Virus record (IMG/VR): IMGVR_UViG_3300033273_000025
Source of the DNA: a virus
Reading direction: 5' to 3' (one strand)
Length of the DNA stretch: 40,882 nt
Below, one piece after another: positions 3,269 to 19,607 of the stretch. Within the stretch, counting starts at the first letter, position 1, and each line of letters begins with the position of its first letter. The notes under the pieces are model-generated. The model was given only the letters and a program-made list of their open reading frames with translations. It ran no database searches and was not told where the DNA came from. The translations under genes were made by a program, and so were the position numbers.

Positions 3269-3288
3269 GGTGTCCCTTCGGGGGCACC
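3269..3288 (+). other. Stable stem-loop with a UUCG tetraloop immediately after the stop codon. No U-run follows.
   Basis: GGTGTCCC-TTCG-GGGGCACC forms 8 bp including one G.U. It starts 1 nt after TAG 3266-3268. Confidence 0.6.
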
Positions 3289-3313
3289 TTCACCCCCAAA
3301 GAGAGCAAACCCC

Positions 3314-5559: not shown

Positions 5560-5561
5560 CG

Positions 5562-7583
5562 ATGAAAGAACTTAAAAAACTTGATGACGAGAAGATCGTC
5601 TCAATCGTAGATAACAACCTACGAATGTCGATTGGCTATGCTGATAGTGAACTAAGCCGTGAACGCTCACGTGTCATGGACTACTACTCAGCAAAACTTC
5701 CGAAACCGGCGCACGATGGTAACAGTAAGTACGTGTCTCAGGACGTGTACGATGCAGTCGAAAGTATGAAGGCAGCACTGTTGGAAACATTCAGTACGGG
5801 AAACCGTACGCTTCGTTTCTCACCACAGGGACCAGAAGATGTCCTAATGGCAGAAGTTTGCACAGAGTACACTGATTACGTCCTACACCGCCAGAACCAC
5901 TTGTTCGAGGTAATGCAGACAGTCATTCACGATGGTCTGATTGCACGTGCAGGTGTTGCGAAGGTTTACTGGTCACAACAGTCCGACAGTCACCTTGAGT
6001 ACGTCGAAGACCTCACTGAAGAGGAACTAGACGCAATCTTGGCAGACGACATGGTTGAGATTGAGGAAATCGTGGAGGACGAGTTTGGTCTGTACACAGG
6101 CGAACTACGTGTGTTCCGTGACACCTCACAGGTCAAGATCGAAGCCGTTGCGCCTGAAGAGTTCTTGATTGAGCCACAGTGTCGTTCAATGGAAACTGCA
6201 TCCTTTGTCGCCCACCGCACACGCAAGACAATCTCAGAACTAATTGAGATGGGCTATGACGAAGACTTGGTGATGGACATTAGTGACGAGGACAATGACT
6301 TCGACACTGATCCGGAGGTTCTATCACGCTTCGATGACATTGGTGCAGGTCGTGGTTTCTCGACCAAAGGCAACCAGAACCAATCACGTCAGGTGACAGT
6401 CGTAGAGGCATATCTACCACTAGACCCAGACGGAACAGGTACGACTGATCTATACCGCATTGTGAAGGTAGGAAACGTCATGTTGTCGAAAGACATGGTG
6501 ACACGTATGCCATTCGTGGCCTTCGTTCCTCTACCGATCCCACACGCGTTCCACGGTAACAACTTCGCAGACAAGTTGATTGCTATTCAGAACGCACGGA
6601 CTGTGTTGACACGCTCAATCCTCGACCACGCGATGGTAACAAACAACCCTCGCTACACTGTGGTCAAGGGTGGCTTGACGAACCCACGTGAACTTATCGA
6701 CAACCGTGTCGGTGGTATCGTGAACGTCACACGTCCAGATGCAATCAACCCAATGCCTCAAGCATCCCTCAACCCCTTCATCTTCCAGACAATCCAAATG
6801 CTGGACGAGGACAAAGAGGACACTTCCGGTGTCTCACGTCTATCTCAGGGCTTAAACAAGGATGCTATCTCGAAGCAGAACTCGGCGGCTATGGTCGAAC
6901 AGTTGGCAACTATGAGCCAACAGCGACAGAAGATCATCGCACGTAACTTCGCTAACAACTTCCTGAAACCATTGTTCAACCTTGTCTACCAGTTGTGTGT
7001 AGAGAACGAGACGATGGAAAAGATCGTTGAACTAGCGGGACAGTACGTCAAAATCTCACCGTCACAATGGTCAGACAAACGTGACGTAATGGTCGAGTTT
7101 AACTTGGGTTATGGTGAACAAGAGACGCAGATTCAAAAGTACCTCGCGTTCCACCAGTTGTTTAGTTCAGACCCATCACTACAGCAGATGTACGGCCCAG
7201 CGCAGAAGTACAAAATGCTTGGTGCTATCCTAGACAAGAGTGGAATTAAGAATGTTGCTGACTATCTGGTCGATCCTTCAACAATACCACCACAACAACC
7301 AGACCCAGCCTCACAGATGCAGATGCAAATGGCGCAGAAGCAACTTGAGGTACAAGAACGTCAGACAGCAGTTGCAGAACTTAAAGCACAGACTGACGCA
7401 GAAATTGCGAAGATGAAGTTGGAACTTGAGAAGATCAAGACACAGCAGCAGTTCGCAATCCAATCGGACAAGTTGGACTTACAAGAGTCACAACAGGCGC
7501 ACAAAGAAGCAGTCAACTACGAAGAGTTAGAGATTGCGAAACGTGCCGAAGACGTCCGAGCAATCGCAAGCCCGAATGGGTAA
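5562..7583 (+). CDS. Portal protein with an extended C-terminal coiled-coil (barrel-like) tail.
   Basis: 673 aa, positioned directly after terL. The N-terminus (SELSRERSRVMDYYSAKLP) is of a type seen in portals. The last ~100 aa are Q/E/K/A-rich heptad-like sequence. Confidence 0.85.
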   Translation: MKELKKLDDEKIVSIVDNNLRMSIGYADSELSRERSRVMDYYSAKLPKPAHDGNSKYVSQDVYDAVESMKAALLETFSTGNRTLRFSPQGPEDVLMAEVCTEYTDYVLHRQNHLFEVMQTVIHDGLIARAGVAKVYWSQQSDSHLEYVEDLTEEELDAILADDMVEIEEIVEDEFGLYTGELRVFRDTSQVKIEAVAPEEFLIEPQCRSMETASFVAHRTRKTISELIEMGYDEDLVMDISDEDNDFDTDPEVLSRFDDIGAGRGFSTKGNQNQSRQVTVVEAYLPLDPDGTGTTDLYRIVKVGNVMLSKDMVTRMPFVAFVPLPIPHAFHGNNFADKLIAIQNARTVLTRSILDHAMVTNNPRYTVVKGGLTNPRELIDNRVGGIVNVTRPDAINPMPQASLNPFIFQTIQMLDEDKEDTSGVSRLSQGLNKDAISKQNSAAMVEQLATMSQQRQKIIARNFANNFLKPLFNLVYQLCVENETMEKIVELAGQYVKISPSQWSDKRDVMVEFNLGYGEQETQIQKYLAFHQLFSSDPSLQQMYGPAQKYKMLGAILDKSGIKNVADYLVDPSTIPPQQPDPASQMQMQMAQKQLEVQERQTAVAELKAQTDAEIAKMKLELEKIKTQQQFAIQSDKLDLQESQQAHKEAVNYEELEIAKRAEDVRAIASPNG

Positions 7584-7601
7584 CTAACCAAAAGGTAATA
7601 C

Positions 7602-7874
7602 ATGCCAACACAAGAAGAGCAACTTGTAATGGCAGGGGATGAAGCAGAGGCCGTACTATCGGCCCCTGCGTTCACTTCTGTCGTCGATTCAATCGTAGAG
7701 CAAGCATTCTCTACGTTCGTGAATACCCAACCAGTGGACGAGCATTTACGAGAAAAAGCCTACTACCACTATCGCGCAATAGCAGACGTGGTGAACACCC
7801 TAAAGCAACGAGTCGAGGTGCGTGACAACATCGTGGCTCAAGGCGACAACAGCCAAGAGGAACTAGGTCTATGA
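7602..7874 (+). CDS. Hypothetical protein between portal and scaffold.
   Basis: 90-aa ORF with AAAGGTAA upstream. Its stop overlaps the next ATG (ATGA). Confidence 0.6.
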   Translation: MPTQEEQLVMAGDEAEAVLSAPAFTSVVDSIVEQAFSTFVNTQPVDEHLREKAYYHYRAIADVVNTLKQRVEVRDNIVAQGDNSQEELGL

Positions 7875-8935
7875 CAAACGACCCAAACAGTAACTCAGAA
7901 CCCCGCGCGTTAGATTTAGATGACGCCGCAGATGCAATCCTAGGTCGATGGGATGACGGTGAAAACCTATCTGAAGTCGAAGACGAGGATTCAACACCCG
8001 AAGACGTCGAAGAGACAGACGTTGACGAGGGTGAATTTGAAGATGACGACCTTGAAGAAGAAGTAGAGGACGACACGGACCCTGAAGAGGATGAAGCCGA
8101 AGAATACGAGGATGACGACGAAGAGGAAGTCGAAGAAGACGAGACAGAAGAAACATCTGTTGTGTCTGACGATGCCCTAATCGAAGTTAGCGTCAAAGGT
8201 GAAAACAAACAGGTATCCGTTAAGGACTTGAAACGTCTTTATGGACAAGAGGCATCTTTAACACAAAAGTCTCAAGATTTAGCAGCCCAGCGCAAAGTTG
8301 CAGAACAAGAGTTCGCAAGGACGCAATTGGCATACCAGAAAATGTTAGAACGTGCGGAAGCCCGACTAGCACCGTATTCAGAGATGGATATGTTACTAGC
8401 GGCACAGCAGATGGATGCAGAGACGTTTGCACAACTGCGACAAGACGCACGTCAGGCCGAAGAGGATGTAAAGTTCCTCAAAGAAGAAAGTCAAAATCTT
8501 CTAGGTGAACTGCAAGCAAACCAGCAGCAAGCGATGCAGAAGGCGGCACAAGATTGTGTTCGTGTTCTGGAAGAGCAACTGCCGGATTGGGGTAACGAAT
8601 TGTACAACGACATTCGTGCCTATGCAGTCAAATCAGGTCTGCCTCAAGAACAAGTTGATCAATACACAGACCCAACGGTCATCATGTTAATCAACAAAGC
8701 CCGACTTTACGACGAGTCCAAGAAGTCAGCGCAATCAAAGAAAGCGAAGGCGAAAGTGACAAAATCCAAGTCGAGCAAGACAAAGGTCTTGAGTTCTAAG
8801 AAATCACCACCCTCCAAAACAACGATGAAGACTAAGCGTCAACAACAGGCTCAGGCCAAGCTGCGCAACAATCCTCGTTACGGTGGCGATACGGATGACA
8901 TTGCCGAAGCACTTATGGCGCGTTGGGAAGACTAA
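7871..8935 (+). CDS. Putative scaffolding protein with an extreme acidic tract and a basic C-terminus.
   Basis: It lies between portal and capsid genes. Middle section is coiled-coil-like. A D/E-rich run covers nt ~7961-8159, and the tail is K/S-rich. Confidence 0.7.
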   Translation: MTNDPNSNSEPRALDLDDAADAILGRWDDGENLSEVEDEDSTPEDVEETDVDEGEFEDDDLEEEVEDDTDPEEDEAEEYEDDDEEEVEEDETEETSVVSDDALIEVSVKGENKQVSVKDLKRLYGQEASLTQKSQDLAAQRKVAEQEFARTQLAYQKMLERAEARLAPYSEMDMLLAAQQMDAETFAQLRQDARQAEEDVKFLKEESQNLLGELQANQQQAMQKAAQDCVRVLEEQLPDWGNELYNDIRAYAVKSGLPQEQVDQYTDPTVIMLINKARLYDESKKSAQSKKAKAKVTKSKSSKTKVLSSKKSPPSKTTMKTKRQQQAQAKLRNNPRYGGDTDDIAEALMARWED

Positions 8936-8968
8936 CCCCAATCTTGCCTAATAGAAGGATTAAAACCT

Positions 8969-9853
8969 ATGGCTACTTATACAACATACGATCAGGTCGG
9001 TAAAAAAGAGTCTGTTGCAGACATCATTTCTGACATCACACCTTTCGACACCCCAGCATTTACAATGTTCAAAGACGAGAAAGTGTCAGCACGTACATTC
9101 TCTTGGCTTGAGGACTCTTTGGCCCCAGCCGGCGCAAACGCAGCCGTTGAAGGCGCGGATGCCGTAATGGGTTCATTGATCGACGCGGTTGAGCGTACAA
9201 ACAACACACAAATCTTGACTAAAGGTTTCCAAGTATCTGCAACTGCGGATGCAATCGGAACATATGGTCGTGCGAAAGAAACAGCACACCAAATGGCGAA
9301 AGCACTGAAAGAGATCAAGCGCGATGCAGAATACGCATTGGTGGGTGTTGATCAGGCCGCAGTTGCGGGTTCTGGTTCAGTTGCACGTAAAATGGCATCT
9401 GTGATCAACCAGATCACAACAGAAGTTGACGCAGGTGCAAACGCATCTGACGCATTGACTGAAGCGAAACTGTTGGAAGCGGGTGAAACTGCATACAACA
9501 ACGGTTCAGACGTTGACACACTAATGATCAAGCCGGGCGATGCACAAATCGTTGCAGGTTTCTCAGCGTCAGCAGGTCGTAACCGTGAAATCGCTCAAGG
9601 CAAAACATTGGTCAACGCAATCGACCTATATGTTTCTCCATACGGCGAGTACCGTGTTGTGTTGAACCGTCACCTAGAGTCTTCACACGCTCTATTGATC
9701 GACCCAACAATGTTCAAGACATGTACTCTACGTCCATTCACACGCACACTTCTAGCGAAGAACGGTGACTCAGACCGTCACCAGATCGTAGGCGAAATGT
9801 CTGTGAAGCACATGAACTTTGGCGACTCTGTGAAGATCACAGGATTGTCATAA
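8969..9853 (+). CDS. Major capsid protein (HK97 fold, SU10-like family).
   Basis: GAAGGA RBS. The N-terminal pattern GKKESVADIISDITPFDTPAFTMF...TFSWLEDSLA matches the capsid family motif (E-D-L-x-d-x-I-x-x-I-s-P-x-d-T-P). A strong terminator follows. Confidence 0.9.
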   Translation: MATYTTYDQVGKKESVADIISDITPFDTPAFTMFKDEKVSARTFSWLEDSLAPAGANAAVEGADAVMGSLIDAVERTNNTQILTKGFQVSATADAIGTYGRAKETAHQMAKALKEIKRDAEYALVGVDQAAVAGSGSVARKMASVINQITTEVDAGANASDALTEAKLLEAGETAYNNGSDVDTLMIKPGDAQIVAGFSASAGRNREIAQGKTLVNAIDLYVSPYGEYRVVLNRHLESSHALLIDPTMFKTCTLRPFTRTLLAKNGDSDRHQIVGEMSVKHMNFGDSVKITGLS

Positions 9854-9887
9854 GAACTCTATAGAACCCTAGCGGTTCTTTAGATTA

Positions 9888-9947
9888 GGCCGCCCTCGGT
9901 AACACAGGTTTTGCTCTCCTTACTGTGTCGCCTTGGGCGGCCTTTTT
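9888..9947 (+). terminator. Rho-independent terminator after the capsid gene.
   Basis: GGCCGCCC (9888-9895) pairs with GGGCGGCC (9935-9942). An inner helix pairs ACACAG with CTGTGT. TTTTT follows at 9943-9947. Confidence 0.75.
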
Positions 9948-9963
9948 GATTCAAGGAAGCACA

Positions 9964-10269
9964 ATGGATAAGAACAACAAATCCCTAATTCAATCGAACA
10001 CCGACTTTCTCTTCGAGACTGGCGACATGGTTCGTAAGCACACACAGAATATCTCACAGGCTTTTCTGGACGACCTAAAAGACGCCCGGAACGAAAGTAC
10101 ACAAAAGCCTATGGGCGAGTTTCACCGTGTGGCCTCTATTCCGACAGCAGTCGTTGAGAAGTGGCTACGCGAAGGTTTTAACATTTGGGAAGCATCTGGC
10201 ACTGAGATCGTGAAGCGACTTCAGAAAGAAGACTTACAAATGTTCATGGCGACTGAAAGGAAAGTCTAA
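9964..10269 (+). CDS. Hypothetical protein.
   Basis: ATG at 9964 follows AAGGAAG. The ORF-track start 9925 lies inside the terminator hairpin. Confidence 0.6.
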   Translation: MDKNNKSLIQSNTDFLFETGDMVRKHTQNISQAFLDDLKDARNESTQKPMGEFHRVASIPTAVVEKWLREGFNIWEASGTEIVKRLQKEDLQMFMATERKV

Positions 10270-10415
10270 TGGGCAACGGTCTATACGCAAACATCAACGC
10301 CAATCAAAAAGCGGGAAAGAAGCCACGCAAGAAGGGTGCCAAAGGCGCACCTACTGACGCGGACTTCAAACGTGCTGCAAAGACAGCAAAGAAACCCACC
10401 AAACGAAAGAAGTAA
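10269..10415 (+). CDS. Small, very basic 48-aa protein, below the ORF-track cutoff.
   Basis: TAATG overlap with the upstream stop. Sequence: MGNGLYANINANQKAGKKPRKKGAKGAPTDADFKRAAKTAKKPTKRKK. It ends 3 nt before the next ATG. Confidence 0.5.
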   Translation: MGNGLYANINANQKAGKKPRKKGAKGAPTDADFKRAAKTAKKPTKRKK

Positions 10416-10418
10416 GAG

Positions 10419-11033
10419 ATGAACAAAGGTCAAATCAGGGCACACTTTAAAGCCCTACTAAACCGTAGTGACTGTAGTGACGCCTTGGCTGATACCTTTA
10501 TTGATCAAGCGTTGACACGTATCCAGCGTTTCCTTCGCATCCCTGCGATGGAACAGCAGCAGACTTACTCGTTCACTTCGGGTACAGCAGTTTCACAGGT
10601 GGTGGTCCCATCGAACATGCTAGAGATTATTGATCTACAGTATGACGGATTGGGTCTGGTACGTGTTCCGCTTCACGAAATGGCAGAACAGCACAAAGTA
10701 GCTGAGAATGGTAATCCAAAGTATTTCACACGTGAGCGTGAAGTAATCAAGATTTCACCTTTGCCGACTACAGGAAATCTTTACCTCAACTACTATGCTG
10801 AGTTCGACGAACTTACAGACGACAGTAGCGAAAACATCATAACACTGATCGCTAGTGACCTACTGACCTACACGGCTTTGTCTTATGCAGCCGACTATTT
10901 CCTAGATGAACGTGGTCCGTTGTTTGAACAAAAGTCGGGTCAGTTCATAGCAGAAATCCAAGAACAGGCTAACGCAGCCGAACAATCAGGTATGGCGCAA
11001 GTCATGCGTCCCACAAGAACATACACAGATTGA
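10419..11033 (+). CDS. Putative head-tail adaptor / connector protein.
   Basis: 204 aa between the capsid module and the fibres. The N-terminus [32 protein letters not shown] resembles head-tail connector families. Confidence 0.5.
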
Positions 11034-11040
11034 GGATACT

Positions 11041-13680
11041 ATGGCTAAGGCTTCATTTTATGGCAATCGTGGCGTCACTCCTAGTAACCCGGACGTTGAC
11101 CCAATCGAACCAAATAACATCAACGCGATTGAGGACAGTAAGAACGCCGCCGCACTAAGCGAGGCCAACGCAGAGTCACACAGAGATGCAGCGGAACAGT
11201 TCGCAACTAACGCATCATTCGCTCAATCAGCAGCAGAAGCAGCACAGTCCGCTGCGGAAACTGCAAAAGTATCAGCACAGTCGCATAAGGAAGAGGCGGC
11301 AACATCTGCATCCGTTGCATCCATCCACGCAACTACAGCCACTAACAAGGCCGCTGAAGCCGCGACGAGTGCATCAGACGCAGCATCCTCTGCAACCGGC
11401 GCACAAGGTTCGGCAACTCTTGCCAACACTGATCGTATTGCAGCAGGTGCATCCGCACTGGCAGCCGAAACATCACGTGTAGCAGCAGAGGCCGCAGAGA
11501 CAGCCGCAGAGACAGCCCAGACAGCCGCAGAGACAGCCGAAACAAACGCGGCTACCTCTGCCTCAAACGCAGCGACAAGCGAGTCCAATGCGGCCTCTAG
11601 CGCGTCTGCGGCATCATCTTCTGCAACTACCTCTTCTACAAAAGCAGGGGATGCTGCAACCAGCGCAGCTAACGCCGCAACTAGCGAGACTAACGCAGCC
11701 GCAAGTGCAACAGCCGCTTCGGGTAGTGAAACCGCAGCAGCCGCAAGCGCGACAGCAGCATCAGGCAGTGCCACAGCCGCCGCAAGTTCTGCCACAGCCG
11801 CCGCTGCGAGTGCGCAAGGTATTGCAACAGCACAGACTGCCTCTGAGACAGCCCAGGCAGCAGCAGAGACAGCACAGGCAGCAGCAGAGACAGCAGAGAC
11901 AAATGCTGGTACTTCTGAAACCAATGCGTCCGCAAGTGCTACGGCAGCCGCCGCAAGTGCAACATCTGCATCCACAAGTGCCGGTACTGCGACTACAAAA
12001 GCAGGTGAGGCCGGTACAAGTGCAACCTTGGCAGCATCAAGTGCATCAAGTGCAGCAGCAAGTGCAACATCTGCATCTGGTCATGCAACCAATGCAGCAA
12101 GTAGTGCATCTGATGCAGCCTCAAGCGCGACAGCAGCGGCAGCATCTCAAGTGGCAGCAGCCCAGAGTGCAGCATCAGCAGCCAACACATACGATCTGTT
12201 TGACGATAGATACTTGGGTTCCAAGTCTTCTGATCCGACAGTAGATAACGATGGGAACGCCGTAGTCCAAGGTAGCCTCTACTTTAACACCACAGCAAAC
12301 GAAATGCGTGTTTATGATGGGGCAGGGTGGATTGCAGCCTCGTCAGCAGGGGGTGCCTCACTACTTGAGTATTTCTTCACGGCTACAGCAAACCAGACGA
12401 CTTTCTCAGGTACGGACTCTGAGGGTAACACACTGGGATACACGATAGACAACATCCTCGTTGTTCTTAACGGTGTTGTCCTTGACTCCACCGCCGACTT
12501 CACTGCAACAGATGGTTCATCTATCGTAATGACAACGGCGGCAGCAGCCGGTGACGAAGTACATGTCATTGCTTTCAAGGCGTTCACTACTGCGGACATG
12601 GTGTCCAAGACTAACGGTGGTATCTTCCACGGTAACGTGGACTTCTCCAATGGCATCGACGTCACAGGTAACATCACGGTCACTGGAACAGTAGACGGAC
12701 GTGACATTGCTGTAGACGGTTCAAAGTTAGATGGTGTTGAGGCAAACGCAGATGTCACTGACAATGCTAATGTCACTTCTGTTCTATCAGGCTTCAGTTC
12801 AACAACATCCTTCACCTCTTCTGACCTTATCCCTGTTTACGACAGTTCGACAAACACATGGGTCAAAGGTACAATCGCCAATGCAGCACTTCAGGGTCCA
12901 GTAGGACCACAGGGTCCACAAGGTCCGGCAGGTGCAGACGGTGCGGTTGGCGCAGACGGCGCAGACGGTGCTCAGGGTCCAGTCGGGCCTCAAGGTCCAG
13001 CGGGTCCGCAAGGCCCAGCAGGTCCGAAAGGTGACACTGGCGACACTGGTCCAGCGGGTGCTACAGGTCCACAAGGTCCACAGGGTTTGACAGGCGCGAC
13101 TGGTGCTACTGGTCCACAAGGTCCGCAGGGTGCTACCGGTCCCCAAGGTGCTACCGGTCCAGCCGGTACAGACGCGAGTTTGCCTTCCGGTGTCATCGTC
13201 ATGTGGTCCGGAAGTAATGCTTCAATACCTTCTGGTTGGTTACTGTGCAACGGCTCTAATGGAACGCCAGATTTACGAGACAGGTTCGTCGTAGGCTCAG
13301 GCAGTTCTTACGCAACAGGCAACACAGGTGGTGCAGCAAGTGTGACACTTACAGCATCTCAAATGCCCTCGCATACGCATAGTTTCAGCGGAACTACGAG
13401 CACAAAGTCTTTGACTGGTACGTTTGTGATGATGGACGACAATACTTCAGATTACCTGTGCCGCATCAAGTCAGCCTCGGGTGTATTTAGTACAACCAAT
13501 ACAACAGCAAGACACATTAACTCACAGGGTGGTGTTGCGTACACAAACCAGAAGAACCAGATGAATTTCGACGCTTCGCACAACCACACATTCAGTGGGA
13601 CGACTGGTTCAGCAGGTAGTAACTCTGCGCACGAAAACCGACCACCTTATTATGCACTTGCTTACATCATGAAATCGTAA
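11041..13680 (+). CDS. Tail fibre protein: Ala/Ser/Thr-rich repeat rod, collagen-like repeats, and a C-terminal tail-collar-type domain.
   Basis: GAGGA RBS. About 380 aa of A/S/T/E repeats. Conserved [19 protein letters not shown]...LYFNTT...MRVYDG..W. 30 Gly-X-Y triplets. C-terminal GVIVMWSGS...[24 protein letters not shown]...MPSHTH is the tail-collar motif. Confidence 0.85.
12895..13164 (+). repeat. Collagen-like Gly-X-Y array: 30 uninterrupted triplets inside the fibre gene.
   Basis: [27 protein letters not shown]...GATGPAG was counted by hand. The first ~80 nt are similar to the start of the array in the next gene. Confidence 0.9.
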
Positions 13681-13691
13681 GGACATCTAGC

Positions 13692-14492
13692 ATGGCAAAC
13701 TCACGCGCATGGAAGTTCGCTAAACTTCTACGAAGTGACGGACAGATCAAAGAGGACAAACTAACCTCCTCCATAAACAATCTTGGAACCATCACCAGTG
13801 TAAGCGGAAGTGACGATAAGATCGTCATCCGTGATGCTACAGATGGTTCTATGAAACTTGCGTCTATCTCTGACGCAGCACTACAGGGACCAGTTGGGCC
13901 GCAAGGCCCAGCCGGACCCGCCGGTGCAGATGGTGTGATTGGCGCAGACGGTGCGGACGGTCCTCAAGGTCCACAGGGTCCAGCGGGTCCACAGGGTCCA
14001 CAGGGTGATACCGGTCCACAGGGTCCGATTGGGAACACTGGTCCTCAAGGTCCACAGGGTGCCACTGGTCCTCAAGGACCAGCGGGTGACGATGGTGCCA
14101 CTGGTCCTCAAGGTCCACAGGGTGCTACTGGTCCTCAAGGTCCACAGGGTGACGATGGTGCTACTGGTCCTCAAGGTCCACAGGGACCAACTGGGAACAC
14201 CGGTCCTCAAGGTCCACAAGGTAACACCGGTCCTCAAGGTCCAGCCGGACCGACAGGTGCTACCGGTGCTACAGGTGCTACTGGCCCACAAGGTCCAGCC
14301 GGGACTTTTAGCGGCGACTTCAACGGTGAAATCACAAACACCAGTGGCAAGCCTTTCTGGGAAAACTCGAATACCGTAAGTTCTAGTTACACAATTACGA
14401 ACAACTACAATGCAATGTCTGCGGGACCGATCACTGTTAATAGTGGCGTGTCTGTGACTATCAATGATGGTGAAGTTTGGACGGTTGTCTAA
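13692..14492 (+). CDS. Collagen-repeat fibre protein.
   Basis: AAGGA RBS. 46 uninterrupted Gly-X-Y triplets. The C-terminus ...[27 protein letters not shown] is typical of small fibre proteins. Confidence 0.8.
13887..14300 (+). repeat. Collagen-like Gly-X-Y array of 46 triplets, with nucleotide-level tandem repeats.
   Basis: The string ggtcctcaaggtcca recurs at least 8 times. Units such as actggtcctcaaggtccacagggt are tandemly reiterated. Confidence 0.9.
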
Positions 14493-14725
14493 TGGCAGCA
14501 ATAGAAATTTCATCAGACTTCGGTCTTAGGTGGGGCAACAGAGTTGTTACGCCGGAAGAACTAGCAGAGGCCATTGACGGTATAGATGTCGTCGATGGTC
14601 TTCTTGTTTTGGATGGTGTCAAGTTTGTAAACCACACGGACCGTGAGGCAATCGTTGATCAACTAGGCATAAGGCACGACCTCCTAGAATTAGTCGAGAG
14701 GATTCACAGTGAATCATTACATTAA
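14492..14725 (+). CDS. Hypothetical protein.
   Basis: TAATG overlap with the fibre gene stop. 77 aa beginning [16 protein letters not shown]. Confidence 0.5.
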   Translation: MAAIEISSDFGLRWGNRVVTPEELAEAIDGIDVVDGLLVLDGVKFVNHTDREAIVDQLGIRHDLLELVERIHSESLH

Positions 14726-14879
14726 AACTGACGAGCAGAATAAGATAACAAACTATCTACTCTGCCTACCCGAAGAAAAACCCGAGGGATTCTTTCAGGT
14801 AACAACCGCACTGCCAGTCTGTGAAATCTATGACCCAGTGACAGGGACATCCACACCAGAGGAACCGGACAATGGCTAG
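14709..14879 (+). CDS. Possible small protein (56 aa, GTG start), below the ORF-track cutoff.
   Basis: GAGG lies 7 nt upstream of GTG 14709. The ORF fills the gap between neighbours and its stop overlaps the next start region. Confidence 0.3.
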   Translation: MNHYIKTDEQNKITNYLLCLPEEKPEGFFQVTTALPVCEIYDPVTGTSTPEEPDNG

Positions 14880-15519
14880 AAAAATTGTTGTACATGGAAC
14901 CAACGGCATAACTTCGTACAAACCAGATGGAACCGTATGGTCTTCTAAATCCAAAGCAGACTTAAACGGCGCAAGTTCAGAGCACTTTCCGTCATCTTCG
15001 GTGATGAAGTTAGACCAGATTCAATTAGACCTTACTGCAACGAAGATGGAAGTACGTAACACTGCGGGTGATAAACTTGCAGGTCTTCAGAACCCATCGA
15101 CGACTGATGGTACAGCAATAACACTGATTAGTAATTCGACTGTACCAGCGGCCTACGCAGACGCGTTCAGTAACGTACAAACAGGCACAACATCACTACC
15201 ACCATCAAGCAGTGAGAACCGTACATGGGCCTTTAAGTACACATGTGAGTTCGAGGGTACATGTCGTATCCGTGGTAACGGTGCGCCTACAGGCTCAATG
15301 GTGTCAGGCAATGACCGTGCGATTTACATTCTTGTGAATGGTGTTGGTGTTGCTTCCGCAGGTAGTTCTATCAACAGTAGTAACTGGGCAGAGAAGACAA
15401 ACCAAACAATCGCCCCCGGTGATTTAGTTCAGTATGACATTCGTGACGTTTACTGGCGTTACTCAAACGGTGGTGTTGCAGCACAGAACTGCGAAATCAG
15501 AGTGGGAACTTACGGTTAA
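14872..15519 (+). CDS. Hypothetical protein in the fibre accessory cluster.
   Basis: 215-aa ORF. Its stop overlaps the next ATG (TAATG). Confidence 0.6.
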   Translation: MARKIVVHGTNGITSYKPDGTVWSSKSKADLNGASSEHFPSSSVMKLDQIQLDLTATKMEVRNTAGDKLAGLQNPSTTDGTAITLISNSTVPAAYADAFSNVQTGTTSLPPSSSENRTWAFKYTCEFEGTCRIRGNGAPTGSMVSGNDRAIYILVNGVGVASAGSSINSSNWAEKTNQTIAPGDLVQYDIRDVYWRYSNGGVAAQNCEIRVGTYG

Positions 15520-16073
15520 TGAAAGTCTACGAACACGATGTGTTTCCCATTCCGACACGTGTTGTTGACCTTGACGAAACCCAACAAGAAGAAATCAAGG
15601 AATACTACAGCGGTGTCTGGGAAAATATACCAAGGCCGGAACATGTGAAAGTCGCAACGACTTGGGGTATGGAAGAACAACCCTTAGACATGTCGCCTAC
15701 ACTGGTGGATGCAATCACGCGGTCACTAGAAGGGTACATAGAGCGAGTCAGTAATTTTGTTACTACCGCCTACATAGAAGATCATTGGCTGCAAGAGTAC
15801 AGTCACGGTGCAGCGCACATGCCTCACCATCACCCAGAAAGTATCATATCTGGTGTGTACTACATCGAAAGTAATAACCAAGGTTCGCCTTTGGTCTTCT
15901 ACAACCCTAACAATGCACAGCATTTCATGAACTACAGTACCTACTCGAACATGGTCGAGTGCTGGCAGGGACGACTAATCTTGTTTCCAAGTTGGCTACT
16001 GCATGGGGTTCCTGAATGTAGAAACGAGGACGTATTGCGACGAGTAATCGCGTTCAACATTAACAAGGATTAA
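15519..16073 (+). CDS. 2OG-Fe(II) oxygenase-like protein, paralog 1.
   Basis: Motifs WLQEY, HMPHHHPES, SGVYYIE, LILFPSWLLHGVPE and RRVIAFN match the small 2OG-Fe(II) oxygenase family common in marine phages. Confidence 0.7.
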   Translation: MKVYEHDVFPIPTRVVDLDETQQEEIKEYYSGVWENIPRPEHVKVATTWGMEEQPLDMSPTLVDAITRSLEGYIERVSNFVTTAYIEDHWLQEYSHGAAHMPHHHPESIISGVYYIESNNQGSPLVFYNPNNAQHFMNYSTYSNMVECWQGRLILFPSWLLHGVPECRNEDVLRRVIAFNINKD

Positions 16074-16076
16074 ATC

Positions 16077-16469
16077 ATGGGAAGCGTTATTCGCGGGGTC
16101 GATGACTTCGATAGTGACACATACATAGATAACATACCCGCAGGTCTTGAAGTCGTAACTACAGGTAACATGAGCTGGGGTTCAAACGGTACTTACACAA
16201 CCTCACATTCACTAGGCCGTCAACCTGTGGCAACACAGATCGAACTTGTGTGTGTGAGTAGCCAACATGGGTATCCTACAGGCGCAGTCCTACACTTGGG
16301 TTCAGGTGAGCGTTATTCCAACTGGGGTGTGGTTGTTATGAACTGCACAAGTTCGTCAATCCGCTGGGGCACCAACAGTAGCGGTATCATCGTCAGACAC
16401 CATAACAGCGGAAGTGCTCAGGTGTTTGGCACCGGTAACTGGCGTGTCAGATTGCGGATTATAGGATAG
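16077..16469 (+). CDS. Hypothetical protein.
   Basis: 130-aa ORF with an AAGGA RBS. Confidence 0.6.
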   Translation: MGSVIRGVDDFDSDTYIDNIPAGLEVVTTGNMSWGSNGTYTTSHSLGRQPVATQIELVCVSSQHGYPTGAVLHLGSGERYSNWGVVVMNCTSSSIRWGTNSSGIIVRHHNSGSAQVFGTGNWRVRLRIIG

Positions 16470-16473
16470 CACA

Positions 16474-16824
16474 ATGGAAGATGATGTAATTTTTTATCAC
16501 TATGTAGACACTGATGGGACTTACCTAGGTGCTTACGATACGACAGACCACCCAGACATTGAAGACGATTGGATTCTAGTACCTGCCCCAGAGAACGGTG
16601 CTGCGCGTTGGGTGAATGGTGCTTGGGATAACAGTGAACCGCAGCGTCAAAAGCGTGACAGACTTCTTTTAGAGTTAGACGGTAAACTTTCAAACCCTCT
16701 GCGCTGGGCAGACCTCAACACACAGCAGCAGACCGCATGGGCAACGTACCGCCAAGCCCTACTGGATGTACCAGAGCAAACAGGTTTTCCAGACAACATT
16801 GTGTGGCCTACGCAGCCTGAGTAA
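16474..16824 (+). CDS. Tail-fibre assembly chaperone-like protein.
   Basis: The C-terminus LRWADLNTQQQTAWATYRQALLDVPEQTGFPDNIVWPTQPE resembles the conserved end of phage fibre-assembly proteins. Confidence 0.55.
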   Translation: MEDDVIFYHYVDTDGTYLGAYDTTDHPDIEDDWILVPAPENGAARWVNGAWDNSEPQRQKRDRLLLELDGKLSNPLRWADLNTQQQTAWATYRQALLDVPEQTGFPDNIVWPTQPE

Positions 16825-17315
16825 TGCAGAAGGTTGCCGATTTTTCAGAAGACATATGGCAACTAGAAGTACCTAACATACAGCAGCATTTAGAATACTT
16901 CGTGCCCTACGTGGATGCACTTGTTGACCACGGTCCTGTGCGACACGACTACATGGCTGCCAACTACGAACTACCACCCGACCTTACACAGACGATCCTA
17001 GGTGCTTGTGCCTCTATATCAGGTGAGGAGGGTTTGGTGGTCCGTGACTATTGGCTGCAAGACTACAGGCTTGACAATTACCACGGCACCCACACCCACG
17101 GTAATGCTATCGTTTCAGGTGTGTACTATCTTCGTTACGAGGGGCATGGTGCGCCAATCGTTTTCCTCGACAAGAATAAAAAAGAGAAACTAATTGAACC
17201 GGCGCGTGGCATGATGATCCTCTTTGGTGGACATGTGCCTCACAGGGTTCCCCCGGTGCCTGAGACAGTAACAGAACGGTCTGTCTTAGCGTTCAATGTT
17301 CATTTAGCAAACTAG
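16824..17315 (+). CDS. 2OG-Fe(II) oxygenase-like protein, paralog 2.
   Basis: Motifs WLQDY, HGTHTHGN, SGVYYLR, MILFGGHVPHRVP and RSVLAFN, in the same order as in 15519-16073. TAATG start overlap. Confidence 0.65.
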   Translation: MQKVADFSEDIWQLEVPNIQQHLEYFVPYVDALVDHGPVRHDYMAANYELPPDLTQTILGACASISGEEGLVVRDYWLQDYRLDNYHGTHTHGNAIVSGVYYLRYEGHGAPIVFLDKNKKEKLIEPARGMMILFGGHVPHRVPPVPETVTERSVLAFNVHLAN

Positions 17316-17323
17316 GAACTAAC

Positions 17324-17608
17324 ATGCCACAAGCAGAGAGTTGGCACCTGTCAAAGAGTGTCCCCATATCCCTTATCTTTGGACTATTGGTCCAAGGTGC
17401 TGCAATAGTCTGGACTGTCAGTATGATGATGTCAGACATTGATACAAACCAAGCCGACATTAACGAACTTAATGCACGTGTTTTGCGGGTAGAGGATGCT
17501 GTCCATGAACAGGCAGTCTCTATGGCGCGTATAGATGAAAACATAAAGGCTATTCGTAAGGCTGTAGAGACTATGGCCTCACGTAACCGTCCACAACCAC
17601 AACCATAA
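17324..17608 (+). CDS. Membrane-anchored coiled-coil protein at the head of the lysis cassette, possibly spanin- or holin-associated.
   Basis: N-terminal TM segment (ISLIFGLLVQGAAIVWTV), heptad-like middle, Pro-rich end RPQPQP. Confidence 0.6.
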   Translation: MPQAESWHLSKSVPISLIFGLLVQGAAIVWTVSMMMSDIDTNQADINELNARVLRVEDAVHEQAVSMARIDENIKAIRKAVETMASRNRPQPQP

Positions 17609-17640
17609 CCCCCTCAACAGAAAAGCAAGGAGAGACGCCA

Positions 17641-18048
17641 ATGTCATTTGTTGGTGCGCTTACCTCTGTTGTGCCTAGCGTCCTGAGTATCATCGACAAG
17701 GTGGTCCCAGACAAGGGTGCAGCCGAGTTAGCCAAAAGTAAGATTGAACTTGAGTTAGTCCAAGCGGCTACAGAAATTAACCGTCTACAAGCAGAGACGA
17801 ACAAGGTCGAGGCCGCCCACCGATCCATCTGGGTCGCAGGTTGGCGTCCGGCAATCGGCTGGTGTTCCGCGCTGGGTGTAGCCTATTTTTTTGTTTTGGA
17901 ACCCCTGCTGCAATGGGCAGCCGTAGCACTGGGGTGGACAATCACTACACCGAAGTTCCCAGAGGAAGCACTGTTCGAGATGGTGTTCGCAATGCTGGGC
18001 ATGGCGGGTCTACGGTCATTCGAGAAGATCAAAGGGGTTGCAAAGTGA
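17641..18048 (+). CDS. Holin, GTA-type 3-TM family.
   Basis: AAGGAGAG RBS. The pattern ...VPDKGAAELAKSKIELELVQA...AETNKVEAAHRSIWVAGWRPAIGWCSALGVAYFFVL matches the holin family of Rhodobacterales GTAs and phages. Confidence 0.7.
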   Translation: MSFVGALTSVVPSVLSIIDKVVPDKGAAELAKSKIELELVQAATEINRLQAETNKVEAAHRSIWVAGWRPAIGWCSALGVAYFFVLEPLLQWAAVALGWTITTPKFPEEALFEMVFAMLGMAGLRSFEKIKGVAK

Positions 18049-18560
18049 AGGACAACTGGACTGCATGTCTAGCCAAGGTGCTAGAGTCCGAAGGCGGCTT
18101 TGTGAACCACAAGCGTGACCCGGGCGGTGCGACAAACCTAGGTATCACCAAGCGTGTCTACGAACAGTGGGTACAGCGGCAGGTCAGCATCCAAGAGATG
18201 CGTGAGTTGACTGTGATACAGGCAGCACCGATCTACGAACATGAGTATTGGAACCGTGTCAGAGGTGACGAACTGCCTGATGGTGTCGATCTACTCATGT
18301 TTGACTTTGCGGTGAACGCTGGAACCAGTCGTGCTATTCGCATGGCTCAGAGGGTAGTGGGTGTTAAGGCCGATGGTATCATTGGTCCTGTGACCCTACA
18401 GGCGATCAACAACTACGACCCCCAAGACTTCATCAAAGAATACTCTGATCGAAAACTGGCGTTCTACAGACGTCTCAAGCACTACGACACCTTTGGTCGT
18501 GGTTGGGAACGTAGAACACAAAAAACACAGATCGCAGCACTCGAACTGTTGCGTGACTGA
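18045..18560 (+). CDS. Endolysin: GH108-type N-terminal domain plus a peptidoglycan-binding domain.
   Basis: GTG 18045 overlaps the holin stop (GTGA). The motif LESEGGFVNHKRDPGGATNLGIT is the EGG(Y/F)-x-DPGG-x-T-x-GIT signature. The upstream part of ORF-track 17841.. lies inside the holin gene. Confidence 0.85.
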   Translation: MKDNWTACLAKVLESEGGFVNHKRDPGGATNLGITKRVYEQWVQRQVSIQEMRELTVIQAAPIYEHEYWNRVRGDELPDGVDLLMFDFAVNAGTSRAIRMAQRVVGVKADGIIGPVTLQAINNYDPQDFIKEYSDRKLAFYRRLKHYDTFGRGWERRTQKTQIAALELLRD

Positions 18561-18644
18561 ATCCCTGTTGCCCCAACTGGTAACAGCCGCATAGCCGTAG
18601 GGCGGCTTAGGGTTCCTACGGCCTACCGAAAGGAAGGTGATCCT

Positions 18645-18827
18645 ATGATTTCTGGAATCGGTTTCCCCATAAGCGAACTTATAATAGTTGGATTACTGGT
18701 CGCCATAATGCTTCGCCAAAAGTGAAGAAGGCGACTCACTGACACTGGTCAAGGACTACACGGCGTCTCTGATCAGTGTTTTTTGCGACACAGACATGTC
18801 GTTATTCTCGCTTAATCATAACTTTTG
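18645..18827 (+). CDS. Possible small membrane protein (60 aa by my reading), absent from the supplied ORF track.
   Basis: AGGAAGGTGA lies 4 nt upstream of the ATG. The N-terminus MISGIGFPISELIIVGLLVAIMLRQ looks like a TM helix. The 3' half runs through a terminator-like hairpin and into A+T-rich DNA. Confidence 0.3.
18741..18784 (+). terminator. Candidate terminator of the rightward late unit.
   Basis: ACACTGGTC (18741-18749) pairs with GATCAGTGT (18770-18778), one G.U included, with a 20-nt loop. It is followed by TTTTTT. Confidence 0.4.
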
Positions 18828-18983
18828 AAGAGATTTCATATAAAGAAAAACAATGAATAACAAAAAGTTCACCGTATGTTTTTCTTATGTTCCTAAAGGT
18901 AAGGAAAACAATACATTGATTTTTTGGTGCAAATCATTAAGTTGTCATGTTGACACTAAGGTTTCTACCAAAGTGTTACCGGG

Positions 18984-19027
18984 GGGCGGTTGAGCAGGTC
19001 TAGCTTACGCCGGACTACCAACCGCCC
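18984..19027. other. Long-range GC-rich hairpin in the convergent intergenic region.
   Basis: GGGCGGTTG ... CAACCGCCC is a perfect 9-bp stem with a 26-nt loop, flanked by A+T-rich DNA. Confidence 0.5.
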
Positions 19028-19156
19028 TTGCTTCACTCGAAAACGACATAATGTTCTAAAAGCGACGCTTTTAAAATAAGATGCGCCATTGTGATTGCAT
19101 GAGTTATCAGTTGTTGAGAGTCATTGGTCAAGCCTTAAAAGGTGTATTGGTGACTT

Positions 19157-19318
19157 TTATAACCAATTCAACTTACTTGCGTTGTGAATGATAATCATGA
19201 AACACGTGGCTACATGTAGTAACCACCAGAATGTCCGAATAACCGCGACTGCATCAGCCTCACGATCTGTACCAACCTTCTCGCCTAGGTGACGTGCCCA
19301 TACGGACCACATTTTCAT
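19157..19318 (-). CDS. Possible small hydrophobic protein (53 aa), the last gene of the leftward block.
   Basis: ATGA start/stop overlap with the upstream ORF. Sequence: MKMWSVWARHLGEKVGTDREADAVAVIRTFWWLLHVATCFMIIIHNASKLNWL. Confidence 0.4.
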   Translation of the reverse strand: MKMWSVWARHLGEKVGTDREADAVAVIRTFWWLLHVATCFMIIIHNASKLNWL

Positions 19319-19557
19319 GAGCATTGCTTTCGTATCTCCGTTTCAAACATGCCCTCTGGTGACTCTAGTGAGGCCAACAAGTCCAACAGTTGGTGGTACG
19401 ACATGATTAAGATTTCGTGTTGATTATTCTTTTCGTCGAACTGGCGTATATACACACGACCATCCTGTTCTAAGAACATATCGACGTCTTCATGTTTCGC
19501 AGTTTCATCTACAACAACCACCTTCGTGTAGTTGTCCTCATGTTCTACTGTAAACAT
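19315..19557 (-). CDS. Hypothetical protein.
   Basis: 80-aa ORF with an AAGGAC RBS. Confidence 0.6.
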   Translation of the reverse strand: MFTVEHEDNYTKVVVVDETAKHEDVDMFLEQDGRVYIRQFDEKNNQHEILIMSYHQLLDLLASLESPEGMFETEIRKQCS

Positions 19558-19593
19558 TTGTTAGTCCTTAGCATTAGTTTTGGTAGTGGAGGC

Positions 19594-19607
19594 GGCCCCG
19601 AAGGGCC
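19594..19607 (-). other. UUCG-tetraloop hairpin 5 nt after the reductase stop codon.
   Basis: The minus strand reads GGCCC-TTCG-GGGCC. No U-run follows. Confidence 0.5.

Follow-up and report, generated by a model that had tools for sequence, protein, structure and literature searches.

The window, the whole 40,882-nt stretch of viral DNA analysed here (IMG/VR record IMGVR_UViG_3300033273_000025), contains a tight, co-directional tail-fibre block of a marine phage, in which two oxygenase genes, OG1 and OG2, sit together with genes for fibres and a fibre chaperone. The annotated features are as follows.

10419-11033, + strand: head-tail adaptor, SU10 adaptor family; the fibre block starts here (PF24175, E 1.4e-21)
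11041-13680, + strand: tail fibre 1, 879 aa (Pfam Collagen 1.8e-13, Collar 5e-4; PHROG tail-fibre families)
13692-14492, + strand: tail fibre 2, 266 aa (Pfam Collagen 7.2e-23)
14477-14725, + strand: conserved 82-aa fibre-cassette protein (homologues in relatives)
14709-14879, + strand: conserved 56-aa fibre-cassette protein (homologues in relatives)
14872-15519, + strand: tip215, an all-beta 215-aa protein (homologue clusters, AlphaFold, Foldseek)
15519-16073, + strand: OG1, PF13759-family oxygenase, 184 aa (Pfam, PHROG, family alignment, AlphaFold/Foldseek)
16077-16469, + strand: 130-aa protein specific to this window (weak Pfam match only, E 0.038)
16474-16824, + strand: tail-fibre assembly chaperone, Phage_tail_APC (PF16778, E 4.6e-17; PHROG tail-fibre-assembly families)
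16824-17315, + strand: OG2, PF13759-family oxygenase paralog, 163 aa (Pfam, PHROG, pairwise alignment to OG1)
17641-18048, + strand: holin (GTA_holin_3TM), downstream edge of the fibre block (PF11351, E 8.2e-16)

The holin gene is followed by a GH108 endolysin domain (~18030-18560). From 10419 to 17315, neighbouring genes overlap by as much as 17 nt or stand as much as 11 nt apart; the stop codon of tip215 and the start codon of OG1 overlap in a TAATG, as do those of the chaperone and OG2, and no excess of promoter-like or terminator-like sequences was found in this block. The original prediction had placed both oxygenase ORFs inside a collagen-repeat tail-fibre cluster, separated by a chaperone-like gene; fibres, chaperone and ORFs are all found at these positions, and the PF16778 match identifies the intervening gene.

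Tail fibre 1 is laid out as an Ala/Ser/Thr-rich N-terminal rod, a Gly-X-Y stretch and a tail-collar-like C-terminus. The uninterrupted Gly-X-Y runs seen originally are present, with 31 triplets in fibre 1 (nt 12895-13173) and 47 in fibre 2 (nt 13887-14309) rather than the 30 and 46 first counted. Taking both fibres together, Pro occupies X in 46 of the 78 triplets and Y in none, and Lys occurs at Y once, as GPK, which makes the initial caveat about X-position Pro and scarce Lys even stronger. Bacterial and phage collagens that are not hydroxylated are reported to have this X=Pro, Y=Gln/Thr make-up (PMC3368898). The C-terminal 'PFWEN...TVV' module of fibre 2 is shared by non-collagen fibres of relatives: the collagen-free fibres of L002 and L099 have ends that are 74% identical to the last 46 aa of fibre 2. 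The 82-aa protein has homologues at the same position (62-69% identity) in L002, L094, L099, L100, L110 and L115, as has the 56-aa protein in these loci (~62-65%). No homologue of the 130-aa protein was found in any related locus (BLAST E < 1e-4); its slot is taken there by other small beta-rich proteins, and it may be a second small tip protein.

Within the Fe(II)/2-oxoglutarate (2OG) oxygenase superfamily, OG1 and OG2 belong to the PF13759 branch, where they are diverged from each other. Profile searches, proposed at the outset as a check, placed both ORFs in PF13759 (2OG-FeII_Oxy_5; OG1, E 6e-15, 55.9 bits against a cut-off of 27; OG2, E 3e-10) and in phrog_81 ('2OG-Fe(II) oxygenase'), with a second, weak match of OG2 to the P4H-type family PF13640 (E 8.5e-7, 30.3 bits). 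The two proteins are 31% identical to each other (E 4e-17), and their family matches, like those of the fibres, are far beyond chance. The pair had been recognized as paralogs of a small 2OG-Fe(II) oxygenase family of marine phages, an assignment that these matches and the Foldseek results on the OG1 model bear out. The motifs then listed (WLQE/DY, HxH, SGVYY, distal H-x-VP and R-x-V/L-x-AFN) coincide with invariant columns of a 29-member family alignment with a mean column identity of 31%. Invariant positions in OG1 numbering are H103, H105, S111-Y115, H162, F179 and N180, and R174 is nearly so (90% of the sequences or more). Candidate metal-binding residues are H103 (nt 15825-15827), H105 (15831-15833) and H162 (16002-16004) in OG1, and H90 (17091-17093), H92 (17097-17099) and H140 (17241-17243) in OG2; the putative 2OG-binding Arg is R174 (16038-16040) and R152 (17277-17279), respectively. 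The metal triad is conserved, but as HxH...H throughout the family instead of the canonical HxD/E...H, and 2OG-dependent catalysis is therefore only putative.

AlphaFold predicts a confident double-stranded beta-helix for OG1 (pLDDT 92.5), and Foldseek matches the model to 2OG oxygenases. The top Foldseek matches are 3bvc and 2rg4, the only solved PF13759 structures, both uncharacterised and belonging to a family with no member of known substrate. The structural comparison suggested originally also returned prolyl hydroxylases (PHD2, Dictyostelium, Trichoplax), matched about as well as small-molecule oxygenases (AsqJ, FtmOx1, HygX).

The protein encoded directly upstream of OG1, tip215, matched no Pfam or PHROG family; its homologues form 22 clusters, with a highly conserved C-terminal region of ~140 aa. 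In Foldseek, its AlphaFold model (pLDDT 80) resembled phage fibre tips, carbohydrate-binding modules and C1q/TNF jelly rolls only weakly, and tip215 is probably a beta-sandwich distal or receptor-binding fibre tip. OG1 orthologues occur in seven lineages (mutual identity ≤74%), and a tip215 homologue lies upstream in all seven, directly or with a chaperone in between, so that a link to fibres, collagen aside, is upheld; L090 and L118 are among the loci with this order. The pairing persists although the surrounding genes differ, but independent observations are fewer than loci because several share one inherited cassette. An upstream fibre is visible in five of the seven lineages, three of which are devoid of any Gly-X-Y. 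Free-standing tips follow collagen-free fibres in L002, L099, L110, L115, L094 and L120, and at the L091 locus the tip comes after a Peptidase_S74 fibre, with the 82-aa and 56-aa genes lacking. L001 is a close relative (94% identity in both the adaptor and OG2) in which a different fibre module has been swapped in and tip215 and OG1 are both absent. Tip homologues of 40-45% identity, including one in a Marivivens prophage, function without any oxygenase, and homologues with short collagen stalks also occur without one. In the T7-like genome L006, a collagen fibre of 140 triplets has the tip homologue as its C-terminal domain; this domain is overall closer to oxygenase-less tips (46-50% identity) than to oxygenase-linked ones (38-45%), yet of 13 discriminating residues it has seven in common with the linked group alone (L109, R117, Y123, A150, Y152, Q187 and D189).

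OG2 is known from four lineages, with homologues of 94% identity in L001 and ~53% in L108 and L110, and its constant partner is only a chaperone-like gene upstream. It always occupies the 3′ end of the fibre module, with a collagen-like fibre nearby, and lysis genes within one gene downstream, in three of the four (window, L001 and L108); the region ahead of the lysis genes is plausibly an accessory-gene hot spot. L110 carries OG1-type and OG2-type genes and no collagen fibre on its 18.5-kb contig. Among 80 IMG/VR loci with distant family members, we found no tip or chaperone match and no collagen-like ORF (run of at least 8 Gly-X-Y triplets). Distant viral members are arranged as oxygenase genes in tandem, which in cyanophage Syn9 adjoin tryptophan halogenases; the 37%-identical relative P0009 also lies in such an array, and pelagiphage HTVC027P has three tandem copies on the opposite strand beside tail genes, resembling an inserted island.

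Other enzymes occur in related fibre modules. Behind its tip-OG1 pair, L118 encodes a PF13640 (P4H-type) oxygenase, an FkbM methyltransferase and a protein in which GT25, LH3/PLOD-type glycosyltransferase and lysyl-hydroxylase domains are fused. Human LH3 (PLOD3) is matched by the glycosyltransferase domain at E 6.6e-21 and by the hydroxylase domain at 9e-5, and the hydroxylase domain also matches mimivirus L230 (2.4e-4). JmjC_2 or radical-SAM genes lie inside the module in other relatives; recruitment of protein-modifying enzymes is therefore a trait of the fibre modules in this clade. In L121-L125, LH3/PLOD-like enzymes adjoin collagen fibres rich in Gly-X-Lys, with Lys at Y in 44 of 140 and 18 of 104 triplets in fibres beside such enzymes. 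Collagen-type modification, at first thought unprecedented for phage fibres, may thus exist in related phages through LH3/PLOD-like and PF13640 enzymes, to judge from gene content, on Lys-rich repeats absent from the window. No LH3/PLOD-like, glycosyltransferase or sulfotransferase gene was found in the window.

On the basis of synteny, we propose, at a probability of roughly 40%, that OG1 and OG2 are protein hydroxylases, expressed late, whose targets are fibre-tip proteins; their catalytic activity, protein substrate and target residue are what we infer here. Both would be expressed together with the late tail-fibre genes and modify distal fibre components, not the Gly-X-Y stalks. OG1 would most likely act on the beta-sandwich tip encoded upstream (14872-15519), timed to its synthesis, before or during fibre assembly, and OG2 on the second tip-plus-chaperone unit (16077-16824). 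R117 and D189 of tip215 are mere leads for the target residue.

The original idea that the pair hydroxylates the Gly-X-Y regions of both fibres, with X-position Pro, Asp/Asn or Gln as candidate targets, now appears very improbable. Collagen-like fibres are indeed encoded 1-3 kb ahead of both genes, within a single operon-like block, OG2 has its P4H-type match and a collagen-like fibre near it in most lineages, and dedicated hydroxylases adjoin such fibres in related contigs. However, OG1 orthologues stand behind complete 1274-1394-aa fibres without a Gly-X-Y run (L091, L099, L110 and L115) and behind a cut one of at least 1622 aa (L120), so that in relatives these oxygenases are found independently of collagen-like fibres. 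L110, the 80 distant loci and the collagen-stalked tips lacking an oxygenase also speak against it, as does the unhydroxylated-type make-up of the window repeats, with Y-position Lys abundant instead beside LH3/PLOD-like enzymes. In relatives, OG1 accompanies the conserved tip whether or not collagen-like repeats are present, which makes collagen hydroxylation unlikely and modification of the fibre tip the better hypothesis.

A less likely but still credible reading is that OG1 and OG2 are accessory genes with no relation to the fibre ('auxiliary metabolic genes' or morons) in a region tolerant of insertions, with a small-molecule or nucleic-acid substrate or mere 2OG consumption. The tandem arrays away from fibre genes, the island-like HTVC027P copies, the position of OG2 next to lysis genes and the equal closeness of the OG1 model to small-molecule oxygenases and protein hydroxylases all fit, and DNA repair, 2OG modulation or secondary-metabolite synthesis have been proposed for cyanophage homologues (PMC3037559; PMC2938197). 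This leaves unexplained the constant upstream partner of OG1 across at least four gene arrangements and two phage backbones, its joint loss with tip215 in L001 and the translational coupling (TAATG). It is improbable that the proteins are non-catalytic beta-helix helpers of tip folding or assembly, virion parts, or enzymes altering a host surface receptor, even though fibre-chaperone genes lie among the oxygenase genes, the metal motif departs from the canonical one and a chaperone alone suffices for tip homologues in other phages. Retention of three His and the Arg at such low overall identity points to conservation of a site for metal and co-substrate, and action at the cell surface is unlikely because inspection by eye of these small proteins shows neither a signal peptide nor a membrane segment.

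Among known systems, the closest are the PF13759/TIGR02466 proteins of Roseobacter-group bacteria (3bvc and 2rg4). Both ORFs exceed the Pfam gathering threshold, a family profile including them matches 3bvc and 2rg4 (E 4.5e-30 and 1.1e-27), and all four share the HxH...H...R motif. OG1 and OG2 are shorter, however (163-184 versus ~200-215 aa), fall under the TIGR02466 cut-off (55.3 and 29.5 versus 62.5 bits), and the cellular members have no phage-fibre context. The copies of T4-like cyanophages (Syn9 gp45/48/50/60) belong to the same Pfam family (25-31% identity), with the same predicted fold and likewise several paralogs per genome, but lie in non-structural arrays by halogenases, whereas the window copies are each paired with a fibre-tip or chaperone gene. 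Collagen P4H and HIF-type prolyl hydroxylases (PF13640; PHD2, Bacillus anthracis P4H and chlorovirus P4H) share the double-stranded beta-helix with the OG1 model (Foldseek TM-scores 0.53-0.65) and, apparently, a similar spacing of first motif, distal His and Arg; OG1 and OG2 have His in place of the Asp/Glu ligand and no peptide-binding domain, and the P4H-type target, Y-position Pro, is absent from the window fibres. Human LH3/PLOD3, COLGALT1 and mimivirus L230/R699 represent a common concept, in which a virus encodes an enzyme that modifies the virus's own fibre protein; their true homologues in relatives lie beside the tip-OG1 pair (L118) or Gly-X-Lys-rich fibres (L121-L125), whereas OG1 and OG2 are of a different oxygenase family and the window nearly lacks Y-position Lys. 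Finally, dioxygenases and sulfotransferases of bacterial operons were predicted to modify co-encoded collagen-like/tail-collar proteins (Iyer et al. 2010, PMC2938197). Those operons involve AspH-like and PhyH-like oxygenases of cellular genomes, unlike OG1 and OG2, but they share with the window an oxygenase encoded beside a presumed fibre-like substrate, and the weak tail-collar match of fibre 1 recalls their tail-collar proteins.

Nucleotides 1-141 and 40742-40882 of the window form a perfect 141-nt direct repeat. Its identical ends show the window to be a complete phage genome (~40.7 kb) that either was assembled as a circle or carries terminal repeats. Its virion genes encode an SU10-type portal, a major capsid protein, and a head-tail adaptor; its replication and expression genes encode a T7-like single-subunit RNA polymerase, a T7-like primase-helicase, and a family A DNA polymerase; endonuclease I, MazG, a class II ribonucleotide reductase, and a tyrosine integrase are also present. 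A DNA search at near-identity found no isolated phage that matches the region or is close to the window, and no isolate has a capsid protein more than 36% identical to the window's. Two of the genes were located as follows:

28455-31085, minus strand, RNA polymerase gene
31211-32242, minus strand, tyrosine integrase (Pfam E 1e-16)

For a genome that also has a T7-like RNA polymerase and an SU10-type head, the integrase suggests a temperate lifestyle. Two 96% identical copies of a 26-nt sequence (28432-28457 and 31105-31130) flank the polymerase gene and may represent a regulatory or promoter element.

The fibre block runs in one direction from the adaptor (10419) to OG2 (17315), with adjacent genes overlapping by up to 17 nt or standing at most 11 nt apart. 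TAATG stop/start overlaps connect the gene of the 215-aa putative fibre-tip protein (tip215; 14872-15519) to the first oxygenase gene (OG1; 15519-16073) and the chaperone gene to the second (OG2; 16824-17315). Scans of 9800-19600 for sigma-70 promoters and terminators yielded no more sites than shuffled sequence and say little about a phage that encodes its own RNA polymerase. The N-terminal half of fibre 1 (11446-12140) is rich in Ala, Ser, Thr, and Glu and built of 21-nt (7-aa) periodic repeats, which suggests a long coiled-coil or fibrous rod preceding the collagen segment. ORF 16474-16824, interleaved with the oxygenase genes and predicted to be chaperone-like, indeed matches the Phage_tail_APC fibre chaperone family PF16778 (62 bits, E 4.6e-17; gathering threshold, 26.6 bits).

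OG1 (184 aa) and OG2 (163 aa) score 55.9 bits (E 6e-15) and 40.8 bits (E 3e-10) against PF13759 (2OG-FeII_Oxy_5), both above the curated gathering threshold of 27 bits. They match phrog_81 (PHROG) alike and share 31% identity (E 4e-17), which bears out their original prediction as 2OG oxygenase paralogs. Neither reaches the curated cut-off of NCBIfam TIGR02466 (55.3 and 29.5 versus 62.5 bits), and by these scores they rank as relatives rather than strict members. Fold was assessed on OG1, to which OG2 is linked by their alignment and the same Pfam families. The AlphaFold model of OG1 (29 homologues; pLDDT 92.5, pTM 0.89) displays a double-stranded beta-helix, and Foldseek matched it to hundreds of 2OG oxygenases at E < 1e-3; as modeled, the fold is that of a 2OG oxygenase. 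Top PDB matches were 3bvc and 2rg4, uncharacterized structural-genomics proteins of the same family; PDB sequence and profile searches retrieved nothing beyond these two, and the papers citing them assign no function. In the next tier (query-normalized TM-scores of 0.53-0.70), the small-molecule oxygenases FtmOx1, AsqJ, HygX, PrhA, and AndA are mixed with the prolyl hydroxylases PHD2 and those of Dictyostelium and Trichoplax; prolyl hydroxylases score like AsqJ, FtmOx1, and HygX, and Foldseek does not resolve the substrate class of OG1. In the viral structure library, the model matches many unnamed cyanophage "2OG-Fe(II) oxygenase" proteins. The literature searched yielded no substrate or reaction for any PF13759/TIGR02466 member. 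OG1 and OG2 are ordinary members of a known but uncharacterized family.

The family alignment unveiled invariant residues H103, H105, S111-G-V-Y-Y115, G151, F156, H162, F179, and N180 (OG1 numbering). The metal motif reads H103-x-H105...H162 in OG1 and H90-x-H92...H140 in OG2. The proposed profile, fold, and metal check held for PF13759 and the OG1 fold, but not for the canonical HxD/E...H facial triad, with HxH being invariant in 29/29 aligned family members. Because the motif spacing fits the triad positions, the site looks like a three-His variant. The nearly invariant R174 (OG1) and R152 (OG2) lie 12 residues past the distal His, and the basic residue of the superfamily is found at 9-12; by this spacing, they are the putative residues binding the 2OG C5-carboxylate, as in P4H/PHD-type enzymes.

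The two fibres upstream are collagen-like, as anticipated, with uninterrupted runs of 31 (fibre 1, 11041-13680) and 47 (fibre 2, 13692-14492) Gly-X-Y triplets. Consistently with the bias already read from these repeats, Pro occupies X in 46/78 triplets and Y in 0/78; Gln or Thr fills most Y positions, and there is a single Lys (at Y, 1/78). Bacterial and phage collagens that keep their stability in the absence of hydroxyproline have been described with this X-Pro, Y-Gln/Thr make-up (PMC3368898). The fibres do not offer the X-Pro-Gly (Y-Pro) substrate of collagen prolyl 4-hydroxylases, and the window encodes no LH3/PLOD-type or glycosyltransferase domain that would mark a PLOD/LH system. Classical P4H or lysyl-hydroxylase action on these fibres was considered and rejected for want of suitable Y-position residues.

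Co-occurrence of oxygenases and collagen-like fibres was assessed at three ranges: distant family members, OG1 orthologues, and OG2 relatives. Single-protein IMG/VR scans gave no hit for OG1 and a single close relative for OG2. The distant set, obtained by an alignment-based scan, comprised 80 IMG/VR loci (871 kb) with PF13759-type genes; none (0/80) carried an ORF with at least 8 Gly-X-Y triplets, and none (0/80) a chaperone or tip homologue. Distant PF13759-type genes usually occur in tandem oxygenase arrays, and so does P0009, a 37%-identical relative. OG1 orthologues are 49-70% identical to the window protein and fall into seven lineages at ≤74% mutual identity. A collagen-like fibre accompanies them in the window and in locus L006. 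Complete upstream fibres lack any Gly-X-Y run of ≥5 triplets in L110 (1394 aa) and L115 (1274 aa) and any run at the tested limit of 4 in L091 (1325 aa, Peptidase_S74) and L099 (1281 aa); the fibre of L120, cut at its N-terminus and at least 1622 aa long, is likewise free of runs of ≥4. By lineage, two have collagen, three do not, and in two the fibre is not visible (2/5 visible positive). Among OG2 relatives, which make up four lineages only, the collagen-like fibre is present in the window, L001, and L108 and absent in L110. The collagen stalk is not the conserved partner of OG1, and Gly-X-Y repeats do not track the oxygenases, an outcome that the original prediction had itself named as refuting it.

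The conserved partner is the tip gene. A tip215 homologue (45-73% identity) lies directly upstream of the OG1-clade gene in 7/7 lineages, with a chaperone in between in L006. Four arrangements were found. The order fibre, 82-aa gene, 56-aa gene, tip, OG1 is that of the window, L002, L094, L099, L100, L110, L114, L115, and L120; tip and OG1 follow an S74-type fibre with both small genes absent in L091; the cassette is missing the 56-aa gene in L090; and in the T7-like genome L006 a collagen fibre of 140 triplets ends in the tip as its C-terminal domain, with the chaperone and then OG1 coming next. L001 shares the window's adaptor and OG2 at 94% identity; its fibre module was exchanged, and it lacks tip215 and OG1 together. 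The tip215 family comprises 22 clusters and is strikingly conserved over the C-terminal ~140 residues (GTTxLPPSxSENRT, SGNDRAIYI, DIRDVYWRYS). Its model is an all-beta sandwich (pLDDT 80) with only weak jelly-roll matches in Foldseek (best E 4e-3, TM ≤0.45), which include the phage fibre tips Kp7 gp52 and the cyanophage A-1(L) short-fibre CBD, along with carbohydrate-binding modules and C1q/TNF heads. We take tip215 to be a putative distal fibre domain, probably one that binds the receptor.

The link is one-way. Where enough flank is visible, tip homologues at 40-45% identity occur without an oxygenase, each having a chaperone and a stalk of just 7-8 triplets (e.g., L103, L106, and the Marivivens geojensis prophage L126); the L117 tip has no oxygenase within 1.6 kb. 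In L126 (9569-10665 of JALKCU010000008.1, strain FJ12, Rhodobacteraceae), a small fibre with 7 Gly-X-Y triplets and a tip215-like domain precedes the chaperone, and no oxygenase is found within 10 kb on either side of the fibre; this homologue hints at Roseobacter-group hosts for the tip family. Few further loci came from scanning metagenomes and genomes with the tip alignment. The fused L006 tip is 46-50% identical to oxygenase-less tips versus 38-45% to free-standing oxygenase-linked tips. At 13 columns separating the two groups, in a small sample whose unlinked group is effectively one lineage and from which L107 was left out because it failed to align, L006 sides with the linked tips at 7, with the unlinked at 2, and with neither at 4. 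The residues it has in common with the linked group are L109, R117, Y123, A150, Y152, Q187, and D189, a comparison that nominates R117 and D189 of tip215 as candidate hydroxylatable residues tracking oxygenase presence. A 189-aa protein encoded two genes upstream of the OG2-like gene of L108 (9226-9795) has both the SGNDR...NG motif and the N-terminal MALQASGAISL pattern of the divergent tip215 members P0085 and P0086. It escaped the tip HMM and is possibly a distant homologue of the tip that pairs with an OG2-type oxygenase.

The fibre modules of relatives contain other modifying enzymes. In a 5.9-kb Logan contig (L118, SRR21201111; 999-5178), tip and OG1 are followed by a PF13640 (P4H-type) oxygenase, an FkbM methyltransferase, and a 586-aa fusion. 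The latter combines a GT25 domain related to procollagen galactosyltransferase 1 (COLGALT1-like, E 3e-6), an LH3/PLOD-type glycosyltransferase domain (Pfam 2e-33; human LH3, E 6.6e-21), and a lysyl-hydroxylase domain with HxD...H (LH3, 9e-5; mimivirus L230, 2.4e-4). By these matches, one phage protein resembles the enzymes of both collagen Lys hydroxylation and glycosylation. Fusions 58-71% identical to it occur in five IMG/VR loci (L121-L125) and, where the upstream region is visible (L121, L123/L124), lie downstream of collagen-like fibres of 140 (L121) and 104 (L123) triplets. The L121 module (3374-11218) reads fibre, chaperone, DUF6065, two PF13640 (P4H-type) oxygenases, sulfotransferase, LH3/PLOD-like fusion, and methyltransferase; in L123, the collagen-like fibre and fusion span 2658-8189. 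Lys occupies Y in 44/140 triplets of L121 and 18/104 of L123, with recurring GxK-GQK. Y-position Lys of the GxK-GQK type is the classical lysyl-hydroxylase motif. Judged by gene content and repeats, L121-L125 look like an encoded collagen-modification system in phages. The DUF6065 proteins beside this cassette matched no PDB sequence and do not resemble the 296-aa protein of L118. We found no paper describing phage LH3/PLOD-like enzymes in the literature searched; for bacterial operons, Iyer et al. (PMC2938197) predicted that collagen-like and tail-collar proteins are hydroxylated and sulfated. A 143-aa JmjC_2/cupin protein (Pfam E 3.6e-11) directly follows the GP38-like adhesin in L110 (15229-17117) and L111 (7870-9758) and adds a third type of oxygenase-fold gene to those found behind fibre-tip genes in this clade. 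The fibre module of L090 contains a radical-SAM gene (3362-4276), located between chaperone and head-tail connector genes. These enzymes make a protein-modifying role of the clade's fibre-embedded oxygenases more plausible.

Our best reading, to which we give a probability of about 40%, is that OG1 and OG2 are late-expressed, metal-dependent protein hydroxylases of distal fibre proteins. They would act during synthesis or assembly of these proteins, OG1 on tip215 and OG2 on the second unit of small protein and chaperone. Direct support comes from the family membership of both ORFs, the OG1 fold, the conserved His/His/His/Arg set, operon packing, and the tip-OG1 pair; catalysis, a protein substrate, and the target site are what we infer. 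A bolder version is more speculative: OG1 might hydroxylate the phage's own receptor-binding tip215, at R117 or D189 as candidates, and the clade's fibre modules might be hot spots of eukaryote-like protein modification. Candidate enzymes would be PF13759/PF13640 oxygenases, JmjC proteins, LH3/PLOD-type lysyl hydroxylase-glycosyltransferases, and sulfotransferases, and phage fibres would be hydroxylated and, in some relatives, also glycosylated or sulfated.

The main rival holds that OG1 and OG2 are fibre-unrelated accessory genes at a permissive spot. The family-wide pattern and Pelagibacter phage HTVC027P favor it, the tip-OG1 pair in all seven lineages is the observation it has to accommodate, and we regard it as possible but doubtful. 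In HTVC027P (L113, 5669-7330), gp72-gp74 are three tandem opposite-strand genes between a tail-collar-domain gene and that of a 654-aa hypothetical protein; of these, gp73 alone bears a 2OG oxygenase annotation, gp72 is a tblastn match to OG2, and the trio resembles an island inserted next to tail genes. A non-catalytic assembly role or a host-surface role for the two proteins, set against their conserved putative metal site, is improbable. Hydroxylation of the collagen stalk, the target of the original prediction, is very improbable despite the neighboring repeats, since OG1 orthologues occur without Gly-X-Y fibres in 3/5 visible lineages and 0/80 distant loci showed such a fibre. A remaining share of probability is given to none of these readings.

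Few unexplained accessory genes of marine phages are as common as 2OG-Fe(II) oxygenase genes, which are usually annotated as "DNA repair" or "metabolic" without test. A PF13759 subfamily locked to a fibre-tip gene appears to be new, as does, more widely, the gathering of hydroxylases, glycosyltransferases, and sulfotransferases in marine podovirus fibre modules. The tip-locked subfamily provides a defined, cloneable, putative enzyme-substrate pair. Hydroxylation of the tip protein, if it occurs, would make this the first phage, as far as we found, to hydroxylate its own virion protein; it would bear on host recognition and virion stability and offer a first concrete class of substrates for the abundant but function-less "2OG-Fe(II) oxygenase" genes of marine phages. 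Collagen repeats beside an oxygenase need not imply collagen hydroxylation, and relatives have now been identified where collagen-type modification of phage fibres looks genuinely encoded. Those collagen-directed systems use other enzymes and Lys-rich repeats, whereas the window has neither. In Syn9, PF13759-type arrays adjoin tryptophan halogenases, whereas the window copies belong to the fibre block.
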